Assembly (NCBI RefSeq): GCF_988243305.1
Contig: NZ_OZ547136.1
Strand: one strand, 5' to 3'
DNA length: 64,000 nt
Shown: positions 30,901 through 33,900 of the stretch, piece after piece
Position numbering within the stretch: position 1 is the stretch's first letter
Layout of the letters: every line of letters begins with the position of its first letter
Program-made: the position numbers

Positions 30901-33900
30901 CCCTGCCCAGCCCACCATAATTCTGGCGTGCGTGAGCGCGGACGATAAAAAAGACGCTGGCGCGTCATATATCGCCGTTGACAATTCCGGGCTGCGACCC
31001 CCGGCACCCGCTTTATAAGGTGCAGAGACAGTGTAACGTCCCGAAATTGCAGAATCAATATTTGGTCTTGAAATGATCATATAGCTGCTGATATCTTTAG
31101 AACTGTTCTTGGATGTTTCGGAGCCGTTTTATGCGAAACAGCTCCCCGTTATTGATGTTGAGTGAGCCGGGTTACTCCCGGCTTTTTTTCACCGCTGCCA
31201 ACCAATAACCTGAAATAACCCCATTTTCGGGTGATACCAGCGAGTCCCTCGCGGTTCTGCTTCCTCCATAACCCGATAAAAAGCAGCCATAAACGGTTCC
31301 ACAGCAACAATTGCGCGACGTGACAACAATCCGTCCGGCGTCATGAACTCATGGGTGTCTGTAGGAATCTGATAGGCGTTCACCAGATTGCGGCATTTAT
31401 CATCTGACAAACCGGTTTTTGCTTTCAGTTGGCGATATCCGGCATAGCCCTCACGAATAGTGCCCTTTTTAATTTGCTCGACTGTTTCAGCAACGTGGCT
31501 GACTTTTTCTTCCACCTGAGTGATCCGTTTCTGTTGGCGAACGGCTTCAAGAGCCATCGCGGCAACCATTTCGATTTCGCTCATTGGCTTACGGATCTGT
31601 TCTTCCAGTTCACGCCAGCGATCTACCAGGCGAGCAGTGAATTCAGGGCAGAGCTGTGCGACGACAATGATGCTGTCGCGCTTACCTTGTTCTCCTTCAA
31701 ACAGGTAATGCTCATATTGAACTTTAAAACCTAAGTTATTGATTTTCTCGGAAACAGCCATTGGCGGTTTCCGGATGATGTTTTTAGCAACCAGGCGTTC
31801 GATACTACGTTTAACATCTGAGTGCTGACTACCCACCAGCTCTGCGATCTCAACGCTGGTCATGGATGCTTTGTCGTTAAAAATTGCGGTGTTCACTGCC
31901 ATCTCCTTACGGATAAATTCTTTTAAGATTCCGCACATTCGTACTTATTGGTGCCGAACCTTCCTTCAGTTATCCTTTTGATCCCTATAAACAAAAGAAC
32001 CAAAGGAGGTTCGACATGAAAGTTCAGGCCGTTGGTTTATTCTGGTTTCGCGATGCGATTCAGTATCATGAGCTCAAAAATATTTTTACTGATGCTGATG
32101 TGCTCTCCGACAGTTACACCGAGTGGAAACACGACGCTGAAAAATTGATTAAGCGTGTCGAAAGAAGCGGGCAACGAGTTATTAAAGTTGAAGCGGATAC
32201 AGCCGAGTTCATCACCTGGTGTACAAGCGAAGGCATTGGAATCAATGCCGAAGGTAGAATGCAGTTCGCATCCTTTAAGGCTTACCAACAACTTCTCAGC
32301 GAACGCTAATGTGATTGGGGCAATCGAAATGGTTGCCCCATCGTATTTAATAGTTATTTTTTCGCTCATATCACCACCATCACTTCTCGTCCTCTGTGTG
32401 CGCTAAGCTTGGATTTGAAATTTTGCGTAACGAATCAGGAATTCCATCTTCAGGGTGAGGATAAAGATCTGGCCTTAAGCCATGTGGCGTGACCTTCCAT
32501 GCAACTACTTCACATACGCGTAAAACGAAACGAGCAGGAATTGTGTTTTTTGAAAACCACTGATTCACCGCTTGCGGCGTCACACCAAGATTTCGCGCTA
32601 TGGCATTTTGCGCAATTAATGCACGAAGTTTGTCGTAATCATTTCCTTCCATAACAAAGCACCAATATTAACTTTATAAATCAAGAATACATCAAGTTTA
32701 AATTAACATGCAAGTTACAAAAGGATCGAATACACTAAAATCAAGTAAAGATTTATCCTTGTAAAGAAACCCACAGGATTTGGTCATGAAGAACGTCAAA
32801 AACACGGAAAATCGAATAGCCGCGATGCTGAAAGCAAAAGGATGGACTCAGGCTCAACTGGCCCGCAAGTTAGGTGTGAGTGCGCAATCAGTGCAGTACT
32901 GGACAACAGGAAAAACATTTCCACGGAGTGATAAGCTCGCGCATTTATCAGAGATTAGCGGTTATCCACAATCCTGGTTCTTAGGTGAAGACTCCTCACC
33001 AACCTTTTCCTCGCAAGAGAAACACCAGACAAGAACAGATAGCGTCGTATTTAATGTCCTTGATGTTGAGTTTAGTTGCGGTGATGGAACTCATGTCCGT
33101 GGTGACTTGATAGATGTAGTGCGCTCAATAGAACTTGATCCTGAATATGCCCGACGTCTTGTTGGAAATCGGGCATTCAAAAATATAGAAATAGGTAACG
33201 CCAGAGGAGACAGTATGGCTCCCACAATCTCACCTGGCGACCTTCTTTTTCTTGATAAGACAGTAACTTATTTTGATGGCGATGGTATTTATGCATTTTG
33301 TTTTGATGGAGAATGCTACGTGAAAAGGCTTCAAAAAATTGGAAGCAAAATCATGGTGTTATCTGATAACCCCAATTATCAACCATGGAGCATCGAAAAA
33401 GAGGGGTTAGCTCTGCTTTATATCCAGTCTAAAGTGATCTCATCAGTACCATTCAACATAAACAGATTTGGTTAGTCTTTGATTTTAACGGGCTTTGCCC
33501 GTTTTTTTCTGCCTGAAATATACGATATCAATTTTTTCTTGACAGCCTGTTTCCCAAAACATAATATCGCACCATCAATTATAACTTGATTTGATTCAAT
33601 TTAAAATTGTTGGCGGATATATGAAGACACTAAAAGCAACTCCAGAAACAACTAATTTTATCAACTGCGGCTGTGTTACGCTTAAGGGCTTAGAACTTGA
33701 TTCCTTTGCATTAAATATTGCAAATTTGCTAAGTGCTGTACGCACATTCCATCTTCTGGATTGTGCTCGCTCAAAGGAACTGGGCATTGAGGTAATGGAA
33801 TTTATCCATGAATATGCTCTATCTGCTGCTTCTCCTGCACAACAAAAACAATCCTTCCCTGAAAGCTGGCTGGTTAACCTTCGCACCCAACGCGAAGCCT

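Follow-up and report, generated by a model that had tools for sequence, protein, structure and literature searches.

A small gene set against the early-right operon of a lambdoid Escherichia coli prophage, probably an exchangeable moron-type cargo

The locus

The window analysed here (64,000 nucleotides, nt; contig NZ_OZ547136.1 of RefSeq assembly GCF_988243305.1; one strand, numbered 5′ to 3′) contains the immunity region of a lambdoid Escherichia coli prophage, in which a plus-strand open reading frame (ORF) for 97 amino acids, ORF97, lies between a Cro/YdaS-type gene (cro) and the Rha and replication genes. An initial annotation, made from the sequence alone, had described this ORF with a consensus Shine–Dalgarno (SD) sequence at ideal spacing, convergent with cro and oriented against the early-right operon; each of these features was found as described, cro and the Rha and replication genes all being on the minus strand. 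A hairpin behind ORF97 and an overlapping minus-strand ORF (minus ORF) had also been recorded. The comparative analysis reported below established that ORF97 is a genuine gene, and makes it probable that this gene is an exchangeable cargo of the moron type. The features of the locus are collected in Table 1.

Table 1. Features of the ORF97 cassette and its flanks, with positions in the window (PGAP, Prokaryotic Genome Annotation Pipeline).
Feature	Position	Strand	Remarks
Rha-family regulator (left flank; next early-right gene past the slot)	31189..31896	-	longest ORF would start at 31938
Launch pad	31948..32015	+	-35-like TTGGTG (31948..31953), 17-nt spacer, -10-like TATCCT (31971..31976), SD, ATG
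Inverted repeat, 5′ arm GCCGAACCTTCCTT	31953..31966	.	complementary to the SD-containing 3′ arm
SD AAAGGAGG	32002..32009	+	6-nt spacer TTCGAC, then ATG (AAGGAGG-6-ATG)
Inverted repeat, 3′ arm AAGGAGGTTCGAC	32003..32015	.	includes the SD of ORF97
ORF97, cargo gene	32016..32309	+	97 amino acids, ATG start; phrog_4753 family; RefSeq WP_000867914.1, 'hypothetical protein'
Antisense (minus) ORF	32037..32369	-	110 amino acids; exact codon register with ORF97; may be translated with the early operon
3′ hairpin GGGGCAATC-gaaat-GGTTGCCCC	32316..32340	+	T-rich tail 32341..32362
Cro/YdaS-type early regulator, convergent with ORF97	32380..32652	-	phrog_35, E = 7e-20; PGAP 'transcriptional regulator'
CI/LexA-type repressor	32780..33475	+	

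Coding evidence and protein family

ORF97 was matched over its full length by the hidden Markov model of phrog_4753 (E = 1.8e-49; residues 1–97 on profile positions 1–97 of 97), which also matched distant relatives found in the same kind of slot (E = 2e-15 and 5e-10). Its product was annotated by PGAP, as a hypothetical protein, in 87 of 5,426 complete E. coli genomes. Thirteen full-length homologues from Escherichia, Salmonella, Klebsiella, Serratia and Pectobacterium were 74–98 % identical to it and could be aligned without gaps or frameshifts. When 14 distinct homologous DNA sequences were compared, the numbers of variable columns at plus-strand codon positions 3/1/2 were 76/29/12, and the median ratio of non-synonymous to synonymous substitution rates (dN/dS) was 0.11 for the plus and 1.09 for the minus frame. 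The protein-like ORF of the initial annotation is, by the profile match and the low dN/dS, a genuine protein-coding gene under purifying selection. Conservation in favour of the minus frame, which that annotation had named as the finding that would overturn its reading, was therefore not what was observed: the substitution pattern and dN/dS both favour the plus frame.

An exhaustive profile search (E ≤ 1e-3) gave 1,128 family members as representatives of clusters at 50 % identity. Most are stand-alone proteins of about 100 amino acids; a few consist of the domain repeated two or three times in tandem, and the only informative fusion among the longer members is an L7/L12-like tail in one protein. 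In an alignment of 83 sequences D26 is invariant and W10, W37, G52, W68, C69 and R81 are nearly so. The family occurs also outside phage early operons. Searches of Pfam, NCBIfam, PADLOC and the PDB sequences, carried out with the single sequence and with profiles of 14 and 83 sequences, gave no match; in PADLOC-DB v2 the products of neither strand were matched, nor were those of six alternative cargos of the slot (E ≤ 0.1). The family, with its more than 1,100 clusters, stands outside every curated domain library.

Predicted fold

For ORF97, AlphaFold2 predicted a β-α-α-β-α-α domain with a predicted local distance difference test (pLDDT) score of 83.8 in the best of five models, with variation among the five. 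Models of relatives from the AlphaFold database (AFDB) could be superposed on it with template modelling (TM) scores of 0.8–0.95; all of them are labelled 'uncharacterized', and a Foldseek search against BFVD and AFDB50 returned uncharacterised proteins only. The homology and structure search proposed with the initial annotation was successful in so far as phrog_4753 and the AFDB relatives were found, and without success in the curated libraries and PDB sequences.

The predicted domain resembles SO3848 from Shewanella oneidensis (PDB 2OX6), a protein of the Aca2/YdiL-like helix-turn-helix (HTH) type. The C-terminal domain of SO3848 is described as extended in the report on the Aca2 structure, where additional helices and longer parallel β1/β2 strands are noted (PMC8434428). 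Judged by the fit of topology, with the aligned range of 2OX6 unreported, the ORF97 product may be a stand-alone version of this C-terminal domain. It differs from SO3848 by the absence of the HTH domain, and sequence similarity between the two was not found in PDB profile searches. The HTH families of Pfam matched neither ORF97 nor any of 83 relatives; the product is not an HTH regulator.

Exchange of the cassette

A comparison of the window with sequence L061 (L numbers denote sequences of the comparison set) shows no difference across the Rha start and the 68 nt that precede ORF97, as far as the ATG; identity resumes at the cro stop. The approximately 360 nt in between are unrelated, and in L061 they carry an unrelated BssS-like gene. 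From these breakpoints the cassette is defined as 32019..32379, hairpin included, with the cro stop codon as its right-hand limit. The 68 nt ahead of the ATG, here called the launch pad, are more conserved than ORF97 itself: the family member in phage EKP1 is only 34 % identical, and the element upstream of it is nearly the same.

IMG/VR was searched with the first 14 bases of the pad, and chance matches were filtered out. Three further ORF97-family subtypes, a BssS-like gene of 83 amino acids, ECs1072-family genes of 145–155 amino acids and unrelated genes of 70, 83 and 88 amino acids were recovered in this way; overall, the pad stands in front of at least nine types of cargo, several of them ORF97-family subtypes. 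In complete E. coli genomes the pad was located at 602 places in 561 of 5,426 genomes, the commonest cargo being the ECs1072 family. In these sequence comparisons, unrelated small genes take the place of the cassette between the ATG and the cro stop, with identical flanks on either side, and the 68-nt pad is common to all these cargos. Family members of 30–45 % identity that lack the pad are still counter-oriented inside early operons, where they follow cro or ydaT and precede CII-like, Rha or replication genes, or are convergent with a repressor gene.

Several individual slots were inspected. EKP1, deposited as an 'Elizabethkingia phage' (OM284015; L050, 4001..4435), has an enterobacterial-lambdoid early region with the same pad. 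In E. coli RMDEC465 (L176, 2501..2575) the slot is 'empty': the pad is intact except for a change of ATG to ATA, and the 3′ end of ydaT comes directly after it; the prophage is decaying, with replication genes that are frameshifted and contain stops. E. coli O157 Xuzhou21 (L172, 3501..4022; CP-933P/Sp12 type) carries the pad and ECs1072 between ydaT and an o-like gene, within a paaR2-paaA2-parE2 immunity region. In a metagenomic prophage (L178, 2686..4224) a larger counter-oriented block within the early-right operon is made up of four co-oriented genes, among them the family member.

Upstream element and 3′ hairpin

An alignment of 21 pad variants had a mean column identity of 83 %. Conserved within it are TTGGTG, the 17-nt distance, the -10-like hexamer and AAGGAGGTTCGAC-ATG; the hexamer reads TATCCT in the window, GATATT or GATACT in other variants and TATAAT in O157, with its A and T positions invariant or nearly so. 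A promoter in the pad is plausible and its candidate elements are conserved, although it is weak by consensus. Sigma-54, sigma-32, CII-type (TTGC-N6-TTGC) and minus-strand promoters were also considered and, on reading by eye only, none was convincing.

The inverted repeat of the pad was paired in 85 % of cells across the 21 variants, compared with at most 57 % when the partners were slid. Covariation was weak: pair 7-68 occurs as CG three times, UA three times and C·A 15 times, and the score was reached by 66 of 500 shuffles. The pairing is thus kept with non-significant covariation; the repeat was rejected as a conserved RNA helix, and an RNA structure of the pad is therefore not claimed. 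If transcription starts after the -10-like hexamer, the 5′ arm would lie outside the cargo mRNA.

Read on the minus strand, the SD region of ORF97 gives a terminator-like hairpin (32012..31997; GAACCTCCTTTGGTTC followed by the T-run TTTTGTTTAT), which the pR transcript would encounter immediately on leaving the cassette. This hairpin and T-run are a property of the window-type pad, present also in L177 and not conserved in other variants. A GGTTCG...CACCA motif in pad and hairpin was considered as a remnant of a tRNA or other known RNA and dismissed, as Rfam gave no match and ARAGORN no tRNA.

The hairpin with T-rich tail reported behind ORF97 in the initial annotation is present and terminator-like by a consensus scan. 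It consists of 11 pairs, six of them G-C, with an RNA minimum free energy of -21 kcal/mol (z = -3.4 relative to shuffles) and the tail TCGTATTTAATAGTTATTTTTT. Behind ORF97-family genes of seven lineages 94 % of cells were paired, compared with at most 59 % after sliding; three pairs were altered on both sides, i.e., compensatorily, and four by wobble. The hairpin is absent behind other cargo types, which carry their own 3′ ends; as far as the aligned sequences go, it is a part of the locus that travels with the ORF97 family. It is probably a weak intrinsic terminator or a stabiliser of the mRNA 3′ end.

The antisense ORF

The stop codon of the minus ORF is the antisense of the single TTA codon of ORF97 (Leu8). 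Its ATG lies 10 nt past the cro stop and is preceded by GGTGGTG (32378..32372). The product was matched by no PHROG, NCBIfam or Pfam family, and its AlphaFold2 model had a pLDDT of 54. Taken alone, the openness of the minus ORF in the window is unremarkable, one stop or fewer in this register having P ~0.27.

The lineages were compared for leucine and serine codons that give a stop in the antisense register (TTA, CTA, TCA), with the expectation derived from local codon usage. In 13 counter-oriented lineages, which are not fully independent, eight of 140 Leu/Ser codons were of this kind and 23.9 were expected (P = 1.6e-4); beyond codon 30, a cut-off chosen post hoc, there were none among 96, with 16.7 expected (P = 5.5e-8). 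Three relatives in other contexts had 11 of 43 (expected 7.8). The contrast between the 13 and the three lineages gave P = 7e-4 for all codons and P = 1.5e-6 beyond codon 30 in Fisher's exact test. Across these lineages the reading frame of the minus ORF is open beyond chance, and it is provided with a start codon and an SD-like sequence. The initial annotation had ascribed an antisense-type composition to this ORF; it does exist and its sequence is unconstrained, but its openness and the coupling of its start and stop to flanking genes are not random.

A cII- or AbrB/MazE-like identity of the minus ORF, considered in view of its ITIKYDGATISIAPITLAFAEKLL N-terminus, was rejected: 13 minus ORFs had no Pfam match at E 0.1 and the AlphaFold2 confidence was low. 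Their apparent G...(A/S)P conservation arises because the GGGG...CCCC hairpin stems covary and alter the amino acids. In the O157 Xuzhou21 slot (L172), a minus ORF of 186 amino acids (3706..4266) extends over the end of ydaT and the larger part of the antisense strand of the cargo, in a different frame.

Interpretation

ORF97 is most likely a counter-oriented accessory ('moron') gene with a predicted expression in the lysogen, and we estimate the probability that it is an exchangeable moron-type cargo, directed against the early-right operon of a lambdoid E. coli prophage and lying between cro and the Rha and replication genes, at about 0.6. The moron suggested in the initial annotation is supported in its architecture by the replacement of the gene between identical flanks, the conserved upstream element, the strong ribosome-binding site (RBS) and the conserved 3′ hairpin; a sigma-70 consensus site is what it lacks. 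Regulation by transcriptional interference, the second suggestion made there, is unsupported and purely conjectural.

The cassette would be transcribed from a modest promoter in the pad (TTGGTG, 17 nt, (T/G)ATAYT), efficient translation of the mRNA would begin at AAGGAGG-6-ATG, and the 3′ hairpin would terminate or stabilise the message. Because the cassette faces pR, expression is expected mainly while pR is repressed, that is, in the lysogen, and should be occluded once the early operon fires; the early transcript, in turn, may carry a translated antisense 'bridge' ORF across the cassette. For the product, a small α/β domain in the cytosol is predicted, with a likeness to SO3848 that presumably concerns the extended C-terminal domain of the latter. 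In view of this resemblance it may be guessed that it binds a protein partner, most likely in an accessory role in the lysogen such as host modulation or the exclusion of other phages. Indirect evidence of expression comes from a different cargo behind the same pad, ECs1072, which is listed among growth-phase-regulated genes in a table from a 2007 microarray study of uninduced O157 Sakai (PMC2241611). The passages retrieved from a study of the CP-933P/Sp12 immunity switch do not mention the counter-oriented gene (PMC8630535). This table and this paper were all that was found, in the parts of the literature retrieved, on the accessions, ECs1072 and slots of this kind.

Several observations weigh against this interpretation. 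No site passed a sigma-70 consensus scan in any pad variant, and the hexamers of the window pad agree with the consensus at only seven of 12 positions. Conservation and inverted repeat of the pad could serve the minus-strand early transcript and not a promoter. The U-tract after the 3′ hairpin is imperfect and interrupted, and it is absent in some lineages of the family. Furthermore, a functional homologue was not found in PADLOC, NCBIfam, Pfam or the PDB sequence search, and the likeness to SO3848 is structural only, its C-terminal assignment being drawn from topology.

A reading that would complement the moron interpretation, and to which somewhat less than even odds are given, is that both strands are coded and that the minus ORF acts as a 'bridge' in the pR operon. 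It would keep ribosomes on the early mRNA, by translational coupling and as protection from Rho-dependent polarity or from antisense-RNA effects, and its peptide would have no conserved function. The depletion of antisense stops in counter-oriented lineages and its absence from family members in other contexts argue for it, all the more as A-ending and rare codons are otherwise freely used and the other two antisense frames carry 1–11 stops each. So does the arrangement of the ORF ends: the start of the minus ORF, whose start region lies within the exchangeable cassette, adjoins the cro stop (TGA-N10-ATG in the window; TGAcATG in L002, L036, L039 and L050), and its stop overlaps the start of the next early gene as ATGA or GTGA in L002, L036, L039 and L035 and as ATGAGTGA in L006, a coupling that involves two different downstream genes. 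These points have to be set against the unconstrained minus frame (dN/dS ~1.1, variation concentrated at its first codon positions), the low pLDDT and lack of family matches, the limits already attached to the stop counts, and an antisense C/G ratio that fits an argument from rut sites (Rho) only partly. In the window, moreover, the minus ORF ends 100 nt before the Rha ORF. Other cargos of the slot, including the BssS-like gene in the same phage backbone, carry 4–10 antisense stops; the slot therefore does not in general depend on bridging, and anti-polarity translation was rejected as a general requirement of it. Only tentatively, then, do we propose that counter-operon cassettes were selected for a stop-free antisense frame, with openness and not the peptide as the selected trait, and that ribosomes traverse the cassette. 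If true, the bridge together with the 68-nt pad (promoter, RBS and ATG) would constitute an undescribed plug-in gene design in lambdoid immunity regions, as well as a natural example of selection for the openness of an ORF instead of its protein sequence, with a bearing on the debate over 'shadow' antisense ORFs.

It is unlikely that the cassette acts mainly through RNA or convergent transcription, with the protein secondary. In that case leaky read-through from pR into Rha and the replication genes would be damped and lysogeny stabilised, with transcripts reading through the hairpin in the manner of lambda pRE/OOP, antisense to cro and sense to cI. The orientation of ORF97 (in the direction of cI, right of cro and convergent with it), its retention in distant relatives, the weak U-tract that makes some read-through plausible, and a Bcep176 family member upstream of and co-oriented with an HTH gene would agree with this. 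They are opposed by the strong purifying selection on the protein, by the occurrence of the family outside phage early operons and by the conserved hairpin, which points to termination or stabilisation instead of read-through; as the slot holds unrelated cargo sequences, any effect at the RNA level would be independent of cargo sequence. We doubt even more strongly that the ORF97 product is the toxic or effector half of a toxin–antitoxin-like or anti-phage module. Counter-oriented prophage cargo slots, such as the P2/P4 hotspots, often hold defence genes, which counts in favour of such a role. A non-phage metagenome contig (L179, 46..663) has a family member of 113 amino acids 34 nt behind a co-oriented gene for an AbrB/MazE/PrlF-type antitoxin, and SO3848 adjoins a gene of SMI1/KNR4, a family of immunity proteins (PMC8434428). 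However, L179 is a single example of this context, most family members are stand-alone genes, PADLOC matches neither ORF97 nor any alternative cargo, and the slot in the window has no partner gene and no adjacent co-oriented antitoxin–toxin pair. That the minus ORF is the sole real gene, for example an analogue of cII, and ORF97 its shadow, is effectively refuted. The minus ORF is the longer of the two and directly follows cro in operon order, and it was chosen by the annotators of EKP1, who called it 'hypothetical protein 21' in place of the ORF97-family gene, and in some NCBI and metagenome gene calls. Substitutions at minus codon positions 1/2/3, however, number 76/12/29, the opposite of a coding pattern, and it is the plus protein that has more than 1,100 relatives, some of them non-overlapping, and a confident fold, neither of which holds for the minus product, which also lacks any family match. 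The correct annotation is that of the plus gene, the minus call being at best secondary, so that the wrong strand has been called in at least one deposited phage genome (EKP1) and in those gene calls.

Comparison with known systems

Lambdoid morons, such as bor and lom of lambda and gp15 of HK97, are autonomous accessory transcription units between conserved phage genes, a concept of Juhala, Hendrix and colleagues. The term is used in this sense in the literature (PMC7067206). ORF97 has in common with them that it is an extra gene, present or absent in related phages between identical flanks, with its own strong RBS, conserved upstream element and 3′ hairpin, and with an orientation that would make it independent of the surrounding operon. 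It differs by its position inside the early-right operon, directly after cro and against it, and by a promoter and lysogen expression that are predicted only; furthermore, many unrelated cargos share one 68-nt pad, with breakpoints exactly at the ATG and the cro stop.

The cargo hotspots of P2-like phages and P4-like satellites (PMC9122126) likewise have conserved flanks around many alternative, mostly uncharacterised cargos, and the ORF97 slot is similarly widespread (561/5,426 E. coli genomes). The P2/P4 cargos are often antiviral, whereas those of the ORF97 slot are single small genes (70–155 amino acids) without a match to any known defence model in PADLOC. Here the flank itself supplies RBS and start codon, and the slot is situated in lambdoid immunity and early regions. 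As in lambda pRE/OOP, the ORF97 unit is directed leftward in lambda terms (cI sense) from a position right of cro, antisense to the pR transcript; in contrast to pRE/OOP, it encodes a conserved protein, a CII-type TTGC-N6-TTGC is not seen in the pad sequence, and the element is exchangeable and common to phages with different immunity modules. The antisense shadow ORFs of E. coli O157:H7 and Pseudomonas (PMC9927249; PMC5960689; bioRxiv 10.1101/2021.02.09.430400) are also long ORFs antisense to an annotated gene, and the minus ORF shares with them a start codon and SD-like sequence of its own. The evidence for the minus ORF is comparative and not from ribosome profiling (Ribo-seq), its peptide sequence is apparently unconstrained, its stops are depleted only against the early operon, and its start and stop are coupled to flanking operon genes; in these respects it differs.

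ORF97 is not categorically new, since it is already annotated as hypothetical and is in kind a moron or hotspot cargo. In the literature searched, no description was found of a launch pad shared between cargos whose exchange points coincide exactly with the ATG and the cro stop, of the breadth of this uncharacterised protein family, or of a context-dependent depletion of antisense stops with coupling of the minus ORF at both ends. Roughly 10 % of complete E. coli genomes have the slot, which occurs also in the immunity region of O157 CP-933P/Sp12; a single portable, putative expression signal precedes small uncharacterised genes of at least nine kinds. The slot may thus serve as a compact hunting ground for lysogenic-conversion or exclusion functions and as a natural insertion site for engineering.

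Neighbouring features

Beyond the slot, the minus strand continues with two Rha-family genes, small ORFs, an O-like gene, a DnaC-like gene and a DnaB helicase gene. The initial annotation had likened the interval behind cro to nutR/tR1 of lambda. This holds for position only. The hairpin moves with the cargo, not as part of the phage backbone, and neither nut-like nor Rfam-like elements were found: a boxA consensus was not seen in the sequence, and an Rfam search of 31500..33000 (E ≤ 1) gave no family match except a chance microRNA.

Two Rfam matches above the gathering score, both on the minus strand, were obtained two genes downstream of the slot, for C4 antisense RNA (30835..30922; 78.8 bits) and isrK (30947..31023; 58.7 bits). 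As both lie inside the 5′ part of a Rha-family ORF of 283 amino acids (30229..31080), they suggest an antirepressor control module of the P1/P7 C4/ant or Gifsy-1 IsrK type.

On the other side of the slot, an ORF for 191 amino acids (33591..34166, plus strand) directly follows the repressor gene, behind a strong promoter-like site (33539..33567). Its C-terminal HTH is matched by HTH models of the RmrA/CapH type in PADLOC (best E = 2e-8). Further Rfam matches in the window were STnc100 and three tRNA genes at 21926..22438 (minus strand), the small RNA MicL at 47600..47907 (minus strand) and C0465 at 61166..61243 (plus strand).

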